A stretch of 64,000 nucleotides of DNA, taken from the NCBI GenBank assembly GCA_019057385.1, contig JAHQJS010000006.1, forward strand, positions 645,038-709,037. Reading direction: 5' to 3'. Source of the stretch: Candidatus Borrarchaeum weybense (GTDB taxonomy: Archaea > Asgardarchaeota > Sifarchaeia > Borrarchaeales > Borrarchaeaceae). Position numbers and translations under genes: made by a program. Position 1 is the first letter of the stretch. Each line of letters opens with the position of its first letter. The notes beneath the pieces are model-generated. The model worked only from the letters and a program-made list of their open reading frames with translations. It searched no databases and was not told the origin of the DNA. Shown here piece by piece: positions 28,516 through 42,037 of the stretch.

Positions 28516-29526
28516 ATGAACCAATTTTGGCGGTTTTACGAATATGCAGCATTAGCAGCAGTTGCACAATCGGTAGGACCTATTTTTACTAATGTGAGAT
28601 TCGGCGATTCTACAAGTCCTGAATATGACGGACTTTCCCTTGATGGTCAAACTGTTGTAGAAGTGAAATCGTATCCTCTTTCCAGAGATGATTGTAAAAA
28701 ACTTGTAGAAAAGACAAACAAGCACTTTGAAAAACTGATTATAATTGCGCCAGGATTCAAAAACAAATATCTTGAGAAGGGACAGGATATTTGGATTGAA
28801 TATATGACCTTTACGACTGAAAATTTTCCTTCCCGGCTACAACAATTTTACCAGGAATGGGAACCACAACTACCTAAGTATTTTGAAACACGTTTAGGGT
28901 GGCATCATTTTTCATACGTCATGTCCAGCGGTAGATTCAGAAACCAAATTGACAAGAGAATTTCAAACACAGAAAAATTGAAGCGTGAAGTCACCAAAAG
29001 AGTCGTTTTTCCTCTTAGAATTTTTGTTTCGATCTCAAAGTGGCGAGATCCAAAGCAGTTATTTTTTAGAAAAAATTCAAACACTCTCTTAGATTCGATA
29101 TTAGCTTTTGATATTGATTGTAGCGATCTGCATGTGCCATGTCTCCTGACTCAAAGTGGTATATGCGAAATTGGACTAGACCATGTAAAACACGAAACGA
29201 TGAAGTTATTTGATTTTTGCGAGGATAAATTAAGTTTAACTGACTTTATGATTTATTTTAGTGGAAGAAAAGGCTTTCATGTTTATTTTTGCGATTATAA
29301 TTCTTCAAAATCATTCAAAAAAGAACTTGAGTTCCGAAAAGACCTCGTTGAGAAATTAAAAGAAAACAACATTCGAGCAGATAGTTCAATCACAGAACAC
29401 CCCAAAGCGATGGTTGGGCTCCCAAGTTCTTTACATGGCTACACGATGAGGGAAATCTGCCTTGTCGGTAGAAGCCGAAAGAGGATAACCTCTTTTCGTC
29501 CACCTAAGCCTTTCAATAGGCGATGA
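28516..29526 (+). CDS. Fusion of restriction-endonuclease-like domain and AEP primase (PriS-like)
   Basis: N-terminal EYDG...VVEVKS...IIIAPGF; C-terminal AFDID and FSGRKGFH. Confidence 0.8.
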   Translation: MNQFWRFYEYAALAAVAQSVGPIFTNVRFGDSTSPEYDGLSLDGQTVVEVKSYPLSRDDCKKLVEKTNKHFEKLIIIAPGFKNKYLEKGQDIWIEYMTFTTENFPSRLQQFYQEWEPQLPKYFETRLGWHHFSYVMSSGRFRNQIDKRISNTEKLKREVTKRVVFPLRIFVSISKWRDPKQLFFRKNSNTLLDSILAFDIDCSDLHVPCLLTQSGICEIGLDHVKHETMKLFDFCEDKLSLTDFMIYFSGRKGFHVYFCDYNSSKSFKKELEFRKDLVEKLKENNIRADSSITEHPKAMVGLPSSLHGYTMREICLVGRSRKRITSFRPPKPFNRR

Positions 29527-29706
29527 GGACCTAATATCGTGCGTTACGGGAATTCTATAGTGTGATGATCGTGGTGGAGTGAGCAGAATCCCGTAATACG
29601 ACGACTGAAAGGTGATGAGGAATTGTATTTTACAAATGGTATCTCAGTCGTGATGATTGCGGTGGAATGAGCGGAGTGCCATAATAAGAGAAAAAGGGGT
29701 GATAAG

Positions 29707-30054
29707 TTGGGAAGGAAGAAAATAAAGATCACAGATGAGGAATTAGAACTAGAATCACAAGAATACACGTTAGAAGATTACAAAGAAACATTACATAGAG
29801 GGCAACTGTGTTTTGCAGTATTTAATGTCTGTCTTACAATCGTTACCATTGGAGTTTTATTACTAACATTAAACCTTGAGTACATAGCTCTACTAAGTTG
29901 TATTAATTTCTTCTTTGCATTCGTGTTATTTTTATCTCTCTTTGAATATCGCAAGAACGAAAGTATCGAAAGCAGTTACACCAAATTCTTAAAACGTAGA
30001 GCATATCGACGTAGACAAAATAAAAATGTTCCTCGCGGATGGATCCGCCTGTAA
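29707..30054 (+). CDS. Two-TM membrane protein
   Basis: Two hydrophobic helices, basic tail. Confidence 0.6.
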   Translation: MGRKKIKITDEELELESQEYTLEDYKETLHRGQLCFAVFNVCLTIVTIGVLLLTLNLEYIALLSCINFFFAFVLFLSLFEYRKNESIESSYTKFLKRRAYRRRQNKNVPRGWIRL

Positions 30055-30308
30055 CATACCTTTTTCTTTCTTTTTTTGAAAACTTAATATTAGTACTTAG
30101 GTAATGAGGATCAATTAGTAAAAGATATAAAGTAGTTCTTGGTTCTATAGAAGACTGTACAATGGTGATTGTTGTGACATCAGTTTTATCGACAAAAGAA
30201 GTCTCTGTCGAAAAAGGAAGAGAAGAGGAAAAGACGGTCTCTCAACTCGCTCTTGATGGTCTAAAATTAATTAAAGAATGTAAAGAAATCATCAAGTCGT
30301 AAATTCAC

Positions 30309-31484
30309 TTATTTTTTAGTTTCTTTTTCAAGTATTTTAACGAAAAGTCCCTCTAATATTTCAAAACGATTAGTGAGAGCCTCTAATTTTTCTTGTTGCA
30401 CATCTCGTTCCTGTGTTGTCGATTTCAATCTTTCTTCTAACTGTTTAACAAGTTCACTTTCTTCGCGTACCTGTTCTTCAAGTTCTCTGGTATCTATAGA
30501 GATCGAGAGATATGGTTCTGCATTTTTGAAGTTTTTAATCATTTCTTTTTCAGTGTATTCATCATACGCGCCATCATAAGGTAGTGTCTGTCCCATACTC
30601 ATTTTTACTTGTTCAAAAGGCATCCATTGTTTTGCAACGCTTGAGAAGGCTTTTCTTATCGCGTGGAAGCCATACGGGTTAAATTTCCCATATTCTTTCA
30701 GTTCTTGAAACGTGACTATTTTTCCTTCGTATTTGGTCGACGGTATTCCTGCTTTAACGATCGTTTTTCGCATCTCTAATTGAGCGGTTCTTTTGGAAAT
30801 TCGTGCTCTTACTTTAAGATTACGAACAGAACCAAACAGAGGACTTTCAAAGAAAAGTTCTTCTCCTCTTTCTCTCTGCCATCGAACATATTGACGGAGT
30901 GTATCAATAGAATCTTTGCCTATCACTGCTTTTGCTTTTGTTTTTGTCTTAGAGCGCGTATATTCTATTACATGATACTGTTTGTCATTCTCTATTGCGG
31001 CACTCACATCTCCGTAATTAAGCCTGAGCATCGAACTTATATCCATCCCGGTCTGAAACGCGAGGATAATGAGGGTTTTTCCCCGCCAATCAGGGGAGGC
31101 CTCATAAAGTTTTCTGATCTCTTCTTTTCTATATACTGCCCTCTTATATTTTCGTGCGTTAGAACGTCGTTGTGATTTAATTCGAATTTCGTGGTAAGTT
31201 AAAAACGATTTGACTGCGTCTTCGTGGTTTGAAGCGGTTTTATCTGAGAGCCCTTGATCGAGTAAGTGTTTATAGAATATATTGAGTTTTGTTTTCGTTT
31301 TAACTTTGTTCTTTTTTGCTTCTTCGAGGAATTCATAAGGAGAAATCCCAAAAAAATGAAAGAATTTCTTGAGTTTGGTCCGATATTGTTTCTTAGTTGA
31401 TTCTTTCCTCCCCGCGAGAAACTCCTCTACATTTTCATACTTTTTAACCCATTCTTTAGAACTTACTTCTGTAATGGCAGTCAT
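30309..31484 (-). CDS. Tyrosine recombinase/integrase with C-terminal coiled coil
   Basis: QTGMDISS, RSKT, FHAIRK, MGQ, YDGAY. Confidence 0.9.
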   Translation of the reverse strand: MTAITEVSSKEWVKKYENVEEFLAGRKESTKKQYRTKLKKFFHFFGISPYEFLEEAKKNKVKTKTKLNIFYKHLLDQGLSDKTASNHEDAVKSFLTYHEIRIKSQRRSNARKYKRAVYRKEEIRKLYEASPDWRGKTLIILAFQTGMDISSMLRLNYGDVSAAIENDKQYHVIEYTRSKTKTKAKAVIGKDSIDTLRQYVRWQRERGEELFFESPLFGSVRNLKVRARISKRTAQLEMRKTIVKAGIPSTKYEGKIVTFQELKEYGKFNPYGFHAIRKAFSSVAKQWMPFEQVKMSMGQTLPYDGAYDEYTEKEMIKNFKNAEPYLSISIDTRELEEQVREESELVKQLEERLKSTTQERDVQQEKLEALTNRFEILEGLFVKILEKETKK

Positions 31485-31599: not shown

Positions 31600-32403
31600 T
31601 CAAGCGATCTCAATAACATCTGCTCTACACTGTTTGCAGTGTCGGAATTGAGGAATTATTTTTTCGCAAGCATTTCTTGCATTGATTATTTCGCTACATG
31701 AAGGTTTTCTAACATTCTCAAATAAAGCTAGTGGGATTAATGGAGTTATATTCTGGAGATGTGCACCTCTTTTCTTCACTTCAGCCGCAATTTCCGCTAT
31801 ATGCATGTCGTTTATTCCTGGGATCAGAATGGTATTTATTTTCGTAACTATCCCTTGTTTAACAACTTCGCTTAGCCCTTTCAGTTGTTTTTTTATCAGG
31901 AGTCGGACTCCCTCGTTCCCATCATATCTAATACCTTTGTACATTACATAGGAGTATATCTTAGCTCCAATTTTTGCATCTAAGCAGTTAATGGTTATTG
32001 TACAAGCTTGAACACCTAAATCTTTCAACGTTTCAGTATTTTCTTCTAATAATAGACCATTTGTGCTTAGACACAATATCAACTCTGGAAAGGCAATATG
32101 AATTTTCTCTAGTGTTTTGAATGTATTTTCATTATATAGTGGTTCACCCGGGCCAGCAATACCCGCTACTCTCAACCGTTCATTGTGTGCATATTTTCTG
32201 ACTAACTCAACAGCTTCATCAGGCGAAAGAATTTTCGTAGCCACTGAGGGTCTAAAAGCATGATAACTGCAGCCTATTTTTTGGTCACAGTAATTACATT
32301 TTATATTGCACTTTGGAGCGACTGGAAGATGAATTCGCCCGTATCTCGAATGGCCGTTGATATAACAAGGATGATTCTGCATTACGTACTGTAAACTGTC
32401 CAC
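31600..32403 (-). CDS. nifB: NifB-like radical SAM protein (short form, no NifX domain)
   Basis: HPC, RIHLPVAPKCNIKCNYC, AGPGEPL, STNG, CKQCRAD. Confidence 0.85.
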   Translation of the reverse strand: MDSLQYVMQNHPCYINGHSRYGRIHLPVAPKCNIKCNYCDQKIGCSYHAFRPSVATKILSPDEAVELVRKYAHNERLRVAGIAGPGEPLYNENTFKTLEKIHIAFPELILCLSTNGLLLEENTETLKDLGVQACTITINCLDAKIGAKIYSYVMYKGIRYDGNEGVRLLIKKQLKGLSEVVKQGIVTKINTILIPGINDMHIAEIAAEVKKRGAHLQNITPLIPLALFENVRKPSCSEIINARNACEKIIPQFRHCKQCRADVIEIA

Positions 32404-32637
32404 TCTTGTCCCTCAATCATATCAATTTGACCCTTAAGTTTAATTAGTAACTGTTTAGGTAATGAAACCTTTTTGTTAAGCGTTTAATTGAAGTACTTTG
32501 TGCTGTTTGTTATTGTAAATGCCCAAAAATCGGAAAGAATATGCCGATGGAGAAAGTTTTAACAGTAACAATTTAAGTATTAGATCTTTATATGAGGCTG
32601 ATGATGTAGTGCAAGAACATTGAGGAGGTGGGCGCTA

Positions 32638-33453
32638 ATTTCCACTGTCGAAAGAATGATAGTAGAGTCACGAATGCTTTGCTCTAAATGAATCACGGAA
32701 GCGGATCTGATGGGGCTTGACATCGCAAGAATCACATATGTTGATGACACTGGTGAACACAGATTATTGGATAACCCGCTAAAAAGAGTAAATGGTCTCT
32801 GGATAAAATGCAATATGAATAATTCTCAGAAGATCATAAAAAGTTGCGATTATTGGGAGATCGTTGACACGACTGCTTCATTTGCAGAAATTAGTGGTCA
32901 CAGAATTCGATACAGAGAAACTCATCTGCAATACGATCCCTTGAGGAATATATCCTTATCTCTTAACATCTGTGTGTATTTTCCAAAGCAACCGTTCTTT
33001 GTGCTTGATTACATGATAAAAAATACTTCGAAAAACTCATCACTTACTGATGTTTCTCTTTATTGGCTCATAGACCTTGATATCGAGGGTAAGGAGAGTT
33101 ACAAAGATAATTTTGCACGGTACGATGATGACATAATTTACCAATACCATTCGCGATCTAATGTTCATGCGGGCTTCTGTAGTACAATTAAATCATCCCG
33201 GTATGAATGTAACAGTCCTTATGGACTCAGAATCAAATCACATCACCTTAACTTAGGAAACATCAACTTTCGAGGTCCTGATGACTGTTCAATTGGCTTA
33301 CAATGGGATTTTGGACAGCTATCGCCTCAAAAAACGATCAACTTACCAGTGGTTTTTGCAGCAGGTATGGATAAAACACATTTCCACTCGAACATGGAGC
33401 AAGGTATTGCGCTATTAAATAAAATAAAAAATACAAATGATTCCACCTCTTAA
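32638..33453 (+). CDS. Unknown protein; candidate selenoprotein with N-terminal CxxU
   Basis: AGGAGGTG SD (32623-32630); ATT 32638 or ATG 32656; TGC TCT AAA TGA (TGA 32689-32691) in frame with track ORF 32710-33453. Confidence 0.6.
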
Positions 33454-33528
33454 AGCCTCTTGAGGTGGGAGATGGGCGATGAACGCGACCGCCAGGAGAT
33501 TTATACATTATATTTAGGAGAAATAAAA

Positions 33529-33957
33529 ATGGACATAGAAGGTTATGTATTTCCTGATGATCTCTATTATTCCGACCAGTTTTTATGGATTCGCATAGAA
33601 AGTGACAATTTGGCGATAATCGGACTCAATGAACTTGCTGTAAAAGCGGTTAAAGAGTTTGCGCTCATCGAAATCTTCTATCCAGTTGGGTATGAAATAA
33701 CTGCGGGGAAGCCAATAGGGGCATCGGATTCGTGGAAGGGCTCTTTAACTCTTTACAACCCAATTTCTGGTAAAATAGTAGAAGTGAATCAAGATGTAGA
33801 ATATGATCCTCAATTGGTTATAACAGATCCGTATGGAGCAGGATGGTTTTTTAAAATCTCACCTATTAATTTGCTTGCAGACAAAGAAGCGTTAATGAAG
33901 GGAGGAAGCCCAGAACTCGTTAAATGGGTGAAGGCTACTATAAAAAAGTTAGTTTAA
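33529..33957 (+). CDS. gcvH: Glycine cleavage H-like (lipoyl carrier) protein
   Basis: PDDLYY, DSWK, PISGKIVEVN, DPYGAGW; AGGAG SD favours ATG 33529. Confidence 0.85.
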   Translation: MDIEGYVFPDDLYYSDQFLWIRIESDNLAIIGLNELAVKAVKEFALIEIFYPVGYEITAGKPIGASDSWKGSLTLYNPISGKIVEVNQDVEYDPQLVITDPYGAGWFFKISPINLLADKEALMKGGSPELVKWVKATIKKLV

Positions 33958-34002
33958 CATTGCTTTTCCTGGAGGCTATAACAAATTTCCTTTTATCGCT
34001 GT

Positions 34003-35337
34003 TTATGAGAGAGGATGTTTACTGAGAAGTTCATCTAATCGTTTTACAGTTGTGTTAATATCTGTTTTCTCTACTCCAATAGCAGCATTAATTGTAAGAT
34101 ATTGGGTTGGATATGTGTCATGGCATGTTCCAAAAGTAGAGTCTGCCTTAGGTAACCCGCGCGGTCCTGTTACTCGTAAAGTGTATAATTGCGCACCTAA
34201 TTTATGCGCGATTCTTGGTTCTGTAATTGTCATTGCTACAGCGATAGTACTATCTACTTCAAGTAAACGCTCTCCATGTTTTTCTGCCGTCTCTTCAAGT
34301 CTTGTTTTCAATAAATTATAGCATTCATTTTGTTGCTGTATTAATTCTCTATATCCATTCTCTCCTAATGATAGAATCGCGGCCAGAAATTGTACAACTG
34401 GTGCAGCAGTTGCACGTCCCGCGTATGAATGCGCTACTCTTTTAAGAAATTCTTCATCAGGTCCAGCTATAATAGATCCGCCAACAGGGCACAGAAAATT
34501 CTTGTCAGTAGATTGGATTATTGCATCTACACGTCCTTTAAAAATCGCGCTTCTTATCATCTTCATTATCACAGGTGATTGCACGCCATAAGCATTATTT
34601 ATTACATGTGGGATCCTCTTTTCTTTTGCTATTTTTGCTATTGAAATTACATCATCAGGCTGTCGTGGTGGGAAAAAGGTAGTTGTTGTCAAAATCGCAG
34701 AGGTGTGTTCATCTATTGCTGCTTCAACATCATTTGGATCAGAAATAACAGCATCACCGTCTAATTTACATTGTATAATTTTCGGTTGCAAATCAACAAG
34801 TGAAATACCGTTTAACGGTGATTCATGATCTATTCGAGGATAAACGACCTCTTGTCCTCCTGTAAGATCCCGTGCAACTTTTAATGCCAGACCAATGCTC
34901 ATACCAGTAGCTAGAGGGATGATGTATGCCCCTGAAATATTTTCAATTCCAAATTTTTTGAGTAAGTCTGTCGCAAGTCTGTTAGCGATCTGATACATTA
35001 AAGATCCGCCTGCTGCCTTTGGTTGAGGATCTATTAATACACCACTTCTTCCAACTCCATGATTAAATCCCGCAGCTAATTCTGAAACTAAAGGCGATGC
35101 AATTCTCGCTTCCCGTTCGCCGATTCGCGCCGCCTTAGGATCCTTATCTGTATCCATAGATGACAAAACCTTGAGCAATAATCTAATTGACTCATCAGAC
35201 CATCCCTCTTTTGGAAGTGTTCTTTGTTCAAAAAGCCTTTTTATAGGTTTTATTAGCGTTTCTTCCAAAACAATAAGACCACGATCCAGCATGTGAGGTG
35301 GTATTAATCCTAAAAGAAGTTCTTTTGGTAACTTCAT
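34003..35337 (-). CDS. spcS: O-phosphoseryl-tRNA(Sec) selenium transferase (SepSecS)
   Basis: GEREAR, HGVGRSG, QPKAAG, NNAYGVQ, QSTDKNF, YAGRA. Confidence 0.95.
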   Translation of the reverse strand: MKLPKELLLGLIPPHMLDRGLIVLEETLIKPIKRLFEQRTLPKEGWSDESIRLLLKVLSSMDTDKDPKAARIGEREARIASPLVSELAAGFNHGVGRSGVLIDPQPKAAGGSLMYQIANRLATDLLKKFGIENISGAYIIPLATGMSIGLALKVARDLTGGQEVVYPRIDHESPLNGISLVDLQPKIIQCKLDGDAVISDPNDVEAAIDEHTSAILTTTTFFPPRQPDDVISIAKIAKEKRIPHVINNAYGVQSPVIMKMIRSAIFKGRVDAIIQSTDKNFLCPVGGSIIAGPDEEFLKRVAHSYAGRATAAPVVQFLAAILSLGENGYRELIQQQNECYNLLKTRLEETAEKHGERLLEVDSTIAVAMTITEPRIAHKLGAQLYTLRVTGPRGLPKADSTFGTCHDTYPTQYLTINAAIGVEKTDINTTVKRLDELLSKHPLS

Positions 35338-41755: not shown

Positions 41756-41905
41756 ATGGTTGAAATTGATGAGAAACTTCTTAACCTGTTCGAAATGTTA
41801 ATACGCTGTTATGACTGTTGAATAGCTTGTAGTGCTCATCTCATTGTCAAAGATGAGAAGGGTAACGTACTTGCAAAGAAGGATATGGTCATTGCAACAG
41901 GATGA
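41756..41905 (+). CDS. vhuU: Selenoprotein VhuU (not in ORF track)
   Basis: MVEIDEKLLNLFEMLIRCYDC-U-IACSAH...; in-frame TGA 41819-41821 at the Ni-ligand position missing from vhuA. Confidence 0.92.
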
Positions 41906-42037
41906 TCTGATCGACAAAAAAGTATGAAGTCGACAGGAACTGGGCCCATATGCGGGGCTTACATATCCTTTCCTTCTAATTAATTTACACTTTAAGTTCA
42001 TTTATTCACATATTCAAACTACAGGAGGCTGTTCCCC

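Follow-up and report, generated by a model that had tools for sequence, protein, structure and literature searches.

A predicted selenoprotein of an Asgard-specific family, with a eukaryote-like SECIS element over its stop codon, in Candidatus Borrarchaeum weybense

The locus

The stretch of 64,000 nucleotides analysed here (the window) corresponds to C6:645038-709037 of the 4.18-Mb, 8-contig Asgard genome of Candidatus Borrarchaeum weybense. The following features are discussed (positions are those of the window unless a contig is given):

31600-32403, minus strand: neighbouring NifB-like radical SAM gene
32586-32631, plus strand: conserved upstream region, TATA-like TTTATATGAGG followed by GAGGAGGTGG
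32656-33453, plus strand: selenoprotein CDS, 265 aa including Sec12, with TAA stop at 33451-33453
32680-32691, plus strand: CxxU motif, TGC TCT AAA TGA, Cys9-Ser-Lys-Sec12
32710-32712, plus strand: internal Met codon ATG, from which ORF callers begin a shortened 247-aa "hypothetical protein"
33437-33472, plus strand: SECIS element (eukaryote-like Asgard, lokiSECIS type I) with AUGA (33437-33440), 9-bp stem (5' arm TTCCACCTC, 33441-33449; 3' arm GAGGTGGGA, 33462-33470), 12-nt loop TTAAAGCCTCTT (33450-33461) and GA (33471-33472)
33475-33493, plus strand: second GC-rich hairpin, GGCGAT / loop GAACGCG / ACCGCC, 2 nt 3' of the SECIS
33529-33957, plus strand: GcvH-like lipoyl-carrier gene, 75 nt 3' of the selenoprotein gene (Pfam GCV_H, E 2e-23)
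34003-35337, minus strand: SepSecS, O-phosphoseryl-tRNA(Sec) selenium transferase (PF05889, E 9e-123, 410 bits)
41757-41905: vhuU, with Sec codon TGA at 41819-41821 and the stop codon within the AUGA of its SECIS
in the same neighbourhood: FrhB/HdrA/MvhD/[NiFeSe] hydrogenase cluster
C6:464920-465039, minus strand: tRNA-Sec, a 23.6-bit match that was inspected

The 247-aa ORF (32710-33453) lies in frame with a TGA at 32689-32691. A preliminary description of this DNA had pointed to a TGA following Cys-Ser-Lys and leading through ITEADL-M into this ORF, and the codon is indeed found there. Read from the upstream ATG 32656 (ATG ATA GTA GAG TCA CGA ATG CTT TGC TCT AAA TGA ATC ACG GAA GCG GAT CTG ATG GGG), the predicted N-terminus is MIVESRMLCSKU, with the Sec codon as codon 12. 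Neither Pfam nor NCBIfam gave a family at E<=1 in searches with the window protein and two of its orthologues, and no signal peptide is apparent in the 265-aa protein.

The upstream region 32586-32631, which probably represents the promoter and 5' UTR, is near-identical in the congeners Ca. Borrarchaeum yapensis (G004) and G001, and the 24 nt preceding ATG 32656 diverge. A scan for promoters and terminators returned nothing. The region ends with the SD-like sequence GGAGGTGG (32624-32631), conserved in the congeners and previously described as a strong SD; since it stands 24 nt 5' of ATG 32656, beyond the canonical distance, that description was not retained. An alternative start at TTG 32620 was rejected: G001 has ACG there, and the sequence from this codon to ATG 32656 evolves freely.

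Conservation of the TGA codon in Borrarchaeum and Thorarchaeia

The protein is 91% identical to its counterpart in G004 and about 77% identical to that of G001. Both congeners have the same TGA and the same peptide MIVESRMLCSKUITEADL, and only synonymous changes are seen. Compared with G001, the 54 nt from ATG 32656 to 32709 show five synonymous and no amino-acid changes, and the encoded residue differs in 9 of the 17 codons located 5' of this ATG. Such coding conservation on both sides of the TGA indicates that purifying selection spans it. At 32710, where the window has ATG, G004 (L002) and G001 (L003) both read AAA (Lys), and therefore no start equivalent to 32710 exists in these two congeners; homologues starting there, which the preliminary description had named as evidence against its reading, are thus not what is found.

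More distant orthologues were collected by a phylum-wide six-frame search, with an orthologue 22-25% identical to the window protein as query. It yielded about 60 full-length Thorarchaeial matches, each with exactly one in-frame TGA. Among the 29 Thorarchaeial loci that were inspected, 28 present C-x-x-TGA and the remaining one (L055, in genome G349) C-S-S-TGT, hence a Cys in place of Sec. The homologue check proposed in the preliminary description thus showed that homologues carry TGA here, in one instance Cys, between conserved flanks. In an alignment of 24 sequences (A2), the window protein aligns with the Thorarchaeial orthologues over its full length, the Cys and Sec columns are both invariant, and the N-terminal PRLDxxYxVECxxUGxGRxGF ranks among the best-conserved segments. 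The family also shares the polar motifs DFDxGGxxSYKDD and GPxDxAxxLQWNLG, whose conservation suggests a binding site.

Searching 1.8 billion representatives with a profile retrieved 142 relatives. The best matches are gene models of 220-234 aa that begin right after the TGA, and one database entry translates the Sec codon as W. Wherever the source organism is named, the relatives come from Promethearchaeota or Thorarchaeota, and all of these are labelled "hypothetical protein". In more distant Asgard relatives (P0032, P0034, P0036, P0049, P0055, P0111), the place of CxxU is taken by CxxC or CxxCxxC. Multi-domain relatives carry transglutaminase domains, which offered no usable functional lead, and a profile search of PDB sequences gave no match. 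A 292-aa homologue (L006), the one inspected from another large family of the phylum, does not have the Cys/Sec N-terminus. A hidden Sec in that homologue was considered and rejected, as its upstream TGA is not preceded by a start codon and no SECIS lies 3'.

The SECIS element and the second hairpin

In the published Asgard element, located at the end of the CDS, AUGA precedes a stem of 9 bp capped by an 11-nt loop that starts with adenines, and GA or AA comes after the stem (PMC4989117; PMC11227280). An element of this kind is present at 33437-33472. It starts 14 nt within the CDS (counted back from the stop) and overlaps the last five codons and the stop, the TAA being located in the loop. 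The stem 33441-33449/33462-33470 is a perfect 9 bp, and in both the window and G004 the element is the region's minimum free energy fold (RNAfold, RNAalifold). Its apical loop, UUAAAGCCUCUU, is A-rich and 12 nt long, with AAA at positions 3-5 and U as the last nucleotide. The preliminary description had pointed to a GC-rich hairpin of three stems 3' of the stop codon, at 33457-33498 (CTCTT/AGGAG, GGTGG/CCGCC, GCG/CGC), with the remark that archaeal SECIS elements usually lie 3' of the gene. RNAfold and RNAalifold instead resolve this part into two hairpins. Of the proposed pairings, GCG/CGC does not persist in G002, and GGTGG forms part of the stem of the SECIS, which is of the eukaryote-like Asgard type, not the euryarchaeal one, and spans the stop codon. 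An element appropriate to this genome is thus present, as had been expected, at another position and of another type.

All five Borrarchaeum sequences share the AUGA 5' and the GA 3' of the stem, as do the Thorarchaeial loci. Three of the five (G002, G003, G001) have an imperfect stem, with one or two mismatches or the need for a bulge or ministem; in these, the part beside AUGA/GA is kept and the upper part is mismatched or re-folded with a ministem. A descriptor drawn from the literature, and fixed after the element had been seen, matched six times on both strands of the 4.18-Mb genome (0-7 times in shuffles), and the window SECIS is the only match genome-wide with a perfect stem; the other five matches are at C4:677303 (plus strand), C6:502409 (minus), C4:174473 (minus), C3:117175 (plus) and C7:219295 (minus). 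The strict lokiSECIS pattern (9+11+9 spacing) and a genome scan demanding at least four A in loop positions 1-5 both miss the element because its loop is of 12 nt and starts with UUAAA. Rfam reported no SECIS or other family in the window at the gathering threshold, and nothing relevant around 33300-34100 at E<=10.

The window loop, UAAAGCCU, resembles the 13-nt loop of the Thorarchaeial orthologues, GUAAAGCnnnGCA. Nearly all 29 Thorarchaeial loci exhibit AUGA, a stem of 8-9 bp, the GUAAAGCnnnGCA loop and GA, two of them fitting poorly, and their stop codon sits within AUGA. In an ungapped alignment of 23 of these elements (A1), 88.9% of the cells are paired, as compared with 27-49% when the partner is slid; double-sided changes occur at 9/9 pairs, and the covariation score was reached by none of 500 shuffles. 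A covariance model (R1) built from the 23 Thorarchaeial elements, a narrow set of one gene family with high GC, does not score the window SECIS (<7 bits); being dominated by family-specific sequence, it was set aside as a test.

The second hairpin (GGCGRT-GAACGCG-ACCGCC) is almost invariant among the Borrarchaeum sequences: in four of the five its 6-bp stem is perfect. Hairpins comparable to it are found 3' of the SECIS elements of VhuD and VhuU in this genome and of the Thorarchaeial orthologues. Similarly, "eaSECIS-like" hairpins have been reported downstream of eSECIS-like ones (Huang, 2024; PMC11227280).

Selenocysteine machinery and gene neighbourhood

SepSecS is located two genes away from the selenoprotein gene, and vhuU is present with its own TGA, both as first described. 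Three VhuD genes of this genome also possess a TGA and a SECIS, the stop codon being inside AUGA. The tRNA-Sec was found neither at the RF01852 gathering threshold nor by aragorn at standard settings. Its fold is of the 9/4 kind, with an acceptor stem of 9 bp, a long D-stem, a UCA anticodon in the anticodon loop CUUCAAA and a 4-bp T-stem split by a T-loop intron of about 30 nt; aragorn calls tRNA-SeC once this intron has been excised by script.

The GcvH-like gene, for which NCBIfam matches remain below cut-offs, is the next gene 3' in all Borrarchaeum congeners and is possibly co-transcribed with the selenoprotein gene. Elsewhere in the genome, a GcvH-like gene is also found 3' of a TGA-containing HdrA-VhuD fusion gene. 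Gene context is not shared between the two lineages: GcvH-like, SepSecS and NifB-like radical SAM genes surround the Borrarchaeum gene, whereas in Thorarchaeia the selenoprotein gene is always divergently paired with that of a 412-aa coiled-coil protein. The Thorarchaeial neighbours gave no Pfam matches, and the conserved coiled-coil protein has no PDB or Pfam relative.

Predicted fold

An AlphaFold2 model of a Thorarchaeial orthologue, built on alignment A3, reached a pLDDT of 91.6 and a pTM of 0.91. It displays an all-beta body followed by a C-terminal helix, and the CxxU (residues 22-25) is placed in the turn of the first beta-hairpin, between beta-strands 13-22 and 29-40. The model of the window protein (built on A2, pLDDT 75.9, low confidence for residues 1-42) presents the same fold (Z 16-18). 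The closest structures to the Thorarchaeial model were 1lf6 (Z 22.3, rmsd 2.6 Å over 227/268 residues, including the post-sandwich helix) and 1ulv (Z 22.2). Foldseek returned GH94 and GH15 matches (E about 6e-7), and in the structure searches GH94 phosphorylases and galactose-mutarotase-like proteins rank after the GH15 matches. According to these models, the family adopts a galactose-mutarotase-like beta-supersandwich with a C-terminal helix, resembling the non-catalytic N-domain of GH15 glucoamylases and its linker helix. Structure searches with the predicted models did not return a Trx, AIRS, Hdr or FlpD fold.

Comparison with known systems

The locus shares several traits with the Asgard genes of VhuD/FrhD, VhuU/FrhA, HdrA, Prx-like protein and SelD, namely an in-frame UGA, Sec synthesis based on SepSecS and an AUGA...GA core that closes the CDS, its stem about 9 bp long and its loop A-rich. 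CxxU occurs in several of those families, and VhuD and VhuU of this very genome use the same kind of SECIS. The window element departs from the published lokiSECIS, in which the stop is the UGA of AUGA and the 11-nt loop ends in G, whereas here the UAA stop lies within the apical loop, which is 12 nt long and has no terminal G. Euryarchaeal SECIS elements (Methanococcus type: GC-rich stem, GAA/A bulge, 3-bp GC stem) share the 3' location, and the hairpin at 33475-33493 is likewise GC-rich and contains GAA; however, no GAA_A asymmetric loop with a 3-bp GC upper stem conserved among congeners can be drawn in the window.

The protein itself stands apart. Seven Asgard families have been published: SelD, FrhA/VhuU, HdrA, FrhD/VhuD, Prx-like, AhpF-N-like and DsbA-like (PMC4989117; PMC11227280). 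The window protein, with its supersandwich fold and its lack of Pfam or NCBIfam matches, is unrelated to all of them. The family does not appear among the selenoproteins listed by Mariotti, 2016 (PMC4989117), Sun, 2021 (PMC9723677), Valentin-Alvarado, 2024 (PMC11291895) and Huang, 2024 (PMC11227280) or in the prokaryotic selenoproteome review of May 2026 (PMC13188914), so that the resemblance to none of the known archaeal families stated in the preliminary description holds against this literature. No selenoprotein with a galactose-mutarotase-like supersandwich appears in these published lists. The mechanism of recoding is itself the known Asgard one.

In the predicted models, the whole protein superposes on the N-domain of GH15 glucoamylase/glucodextranase (1lf6, 1ulv) and on GH94. 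Sequence identity to these domains is, however, just 8-15%, with no Pfam match; the protein stands alone, without the catalytic (alpha/alpha)6 domain, and it has a Cys/Sec pair that the GH15/GH94 domains lack. Thioredoxin-fold CxxU selenoproteins of the Rdx/SelW type are likewise small and soluble, with an N-terminal CxxU and a presumed redox role. Their CxxU lies between beta1 and alpha1, whereas it would lie in a beta-hairpin turn of an all-beta supersandwich in the present family.

Interpretation and alternative explanations

We consider it very probable that 32656-33453 encodes a cytoplasmic selenoprotein of 265 residues, member of an Asgard-specific family absent from published lists, whose UGA is recoded via an Asgard SECIS. 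Translation would begin at ATG 32656, and UGA codon 12 (32689-32691) would be read as selenocysteine to give an N-terminal Cys-Ser-Lys-Sec. Recoding would be directed by the eukaryote-like Asgard SECIS at 33437-33472, whose 5' arm would encode the last residues of the protein and whose loop would carry the UAA stop. The conserved TGA, the Cys homologue and the SECIS support the selenoprotein reading that had been put forward at the outset.

Two explanations would remove selenocysteine from the locus. The UGA might be a true stop ending an 11-codon leader-peptide ORF (32656-32691), with the protein starting at ATG 32710, as ORF callers and public databases have it and as the ATG six codons past the TGA in the window would allow. 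This is very improbable given the AAA found at that codon in two congeners, the alignment of the supposed leader with the N-terminal beta-strand and CxxU of the orthologues (22-25% identity), and with CxxC in the Cys forms, and the presence of the SECIS in nearly all copies. It is scarcely credible that the TGA reflects faulty sequencing or assembly or a recent nonsense mutation in a pseudogene, or that it is read as Trp or Cys through a code change. The sequence does derive from a MAG, and one database entry does give W, but TGA occupies the same codon in more than 60 independently assembled genomes, which contradicts an error or a recent nonsense change; the frame is not disrupted and selection acts on both sides of the TGA, and TGA also serves as terminator of the Thorarchaeial orthologues themselves and of many genes in this genome.

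As for function, the exchange of Sec and Cys together with the CxxU/CxxC spacing points to a redox-active selenenylsulfide couple. We infer, at a little short of even chances, that the Cys/Sec pair is a redox centre cycling between selenenylsulfide and thiol/selenol, for which the supersandwich would act as a platform binding the substrate or a partner. The main rival on this point leaves Sec decoding unchanged and takes the pair for a metal-binding knuckle (Ni, Fe, Zn, Cu or Hg) of a metallochaperone or sensor, completed across a dimer or with a partner. A CxxC/CxxU at the tip of a beta-hairpin, as predicted by the models, would have the classic knuckle geometry, distant relatives carry CxxCxxC, and the Borrarchaeum gene is located between the NifB-like radical SAM gene and the Hdr/[NiFeSe]-hydrogenase cluster; yet conservation extends to just two ligands, A2 showing no further invariant pair of Cys or His, the neighbourhood differs in Thorarchaeia, and no similarity to known metallochaperones was found. 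We regard the knuckle as unlikely.

The redox reading may be carried further, to a proposal that we hold as doubtful and put forward tentatively. The protein could be the founding member of an Asgard-only selenoenzyme family, in which a stand-alone supersandwich of the type found in sugar enzymes would bear a beta-hairpin Cys/Sec pair performing a redox or chalcogen-transfer reaction outside the known selenoprotein classes. Its partner in Borrarchaeum may be the GcvH-like lipoyl carrier, and the SECIS and the second hairpin may form a bipartite recoding signal missed by published Asgard SECIS models.

Significance

About a dozen selenoprotein families are credited to Archaea. Asgard selenoprotein surveys have searched by homology to known families (PMC4989117; PMC9723677; PMC11291895; PMC11227280; PMC13188914). 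Homology-based pipelines cannot see the present family, because none of its relatives has been characterised and its genes are truncated at the UGA by gene callers. Public entries, which now stand as shortened "hypothetical proteins", can be corrected. With the Sec form in essentially all sampled Thorarchaeial genomes and in Borrarchaeales, the size and composition of the Asgard selenoproteome would change.

Elements flanking the selenoprotein gene

All Asgard SECIS inspected (those of the selenoprotein gene, vhuU, three VhuD genes and about 27 Thorarchaeial orthologues) are followed within a few nucleotides on the 3' side by a short GC-rich hairpin, which in Thorarchaeia takes the form GGG-nAGCAn-CCC with a conserved loop.

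window 33475-33493, hairpin of the selenoprotein gene
window ~41941-41958, hairpin of vhuU
Thorarchaeial loci L037-L066, hairpin about 3-6 nt past the SECIS GA
window 32622-32631, conserved 5'-UTR box GAGGAGGTGG

No description of this hairpin was found in the SECIS literature compared; it could contribute to the signal for recoding, act as a terminator or serve RNA stability. The 5'-UTR box includes an octamer, GAGGTGGG, that is identical to one in the SECIS 3' arm (window 33462-33469), so that the box could, judging from its sequence, base-pair with the SECIS 5' arm; the match may also be a coincidence owing to an SD-like sequence. In the sole Cys-bearing Thorarchaeial orthologue (L055, G349:C61), the stop codon is still accompanied by a hairpin of the AUGA...GA kind, although its loop has diverged, and this persistence at the 3' end suggests that Sec was replaced by Cys recently.

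Gene neighbourhood

In Thorarchaeia (loci L037-L110), the selenoprotein gene is always adjoined by a divergent gene for a coiled-coil protein of ~412 aa, 51-62% identical among most genomes and more so among close relatives, for which no relative was found in Pfam or PDB. Its sole homologue in Ca. Borrarchaeum weybense, 26% identical, is located elsewhere (C3:1113-2342); in this species, the selenoprotein gene is divergently transcribed from a NifB-like radical SAM gene encoding the rSAM core only (TIGR01290, 293 bits, under the cut-off of 343.65).

L037:89-1330, minus, ~412-aa coiled-coil protein (example)
window 31600-32403, minus, NifB-like radical SAM protein, 267 aa
window 30309-31484, minus, tyrosine integrase
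window 28516-29526, primase-small-subunit-like gene

The last two genes (window 28516-31484) lie immediately upstream of the radical SAM gene, hinting at an integrated element beside the selenoprotein locus.

Selenocysteine decoding elsewhere in the genome

The tRNA-Sec gene, outside the window, has a 9-bp acceptor stem, a 4-bp T-stem and a UCA anticodon, and its T-loop is split by an intron of ~30-33 nt. It scores only 23.6 bits with Rfam RF01852, and aragorn detects it after intron excision, not before. Of the three MvhD/VhuD-type genes with in-frame TGA, one contains two such codons; the copy at C6:372k is itself fused to HdrA, and another GcvH-like gene comes after it.

C6:464920-465039, minus, tRNA-Sec
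C6:186006-186371, plus, MvhD/VhuD-type gene
C6:371753-372118, plus, MvhD/VhuD-type gene
C4:638628-638996, minus, MvhD/VhuD-type gene
C4:677303, plus, SECIS-descriptor match
C6:502409, minus, SECIS-descriptor match
C4:174473, minus, SECIS-descriptor match
C3:117175, plus, SECIS-descriptor match
C7:219295, minus, SECIS-descriptor match
C6:625885, minus, SECIS-descriptor match

These further descriptor matches may mark genes for SelD, Prx-like or other, possibly unlisted, selenoproteins.
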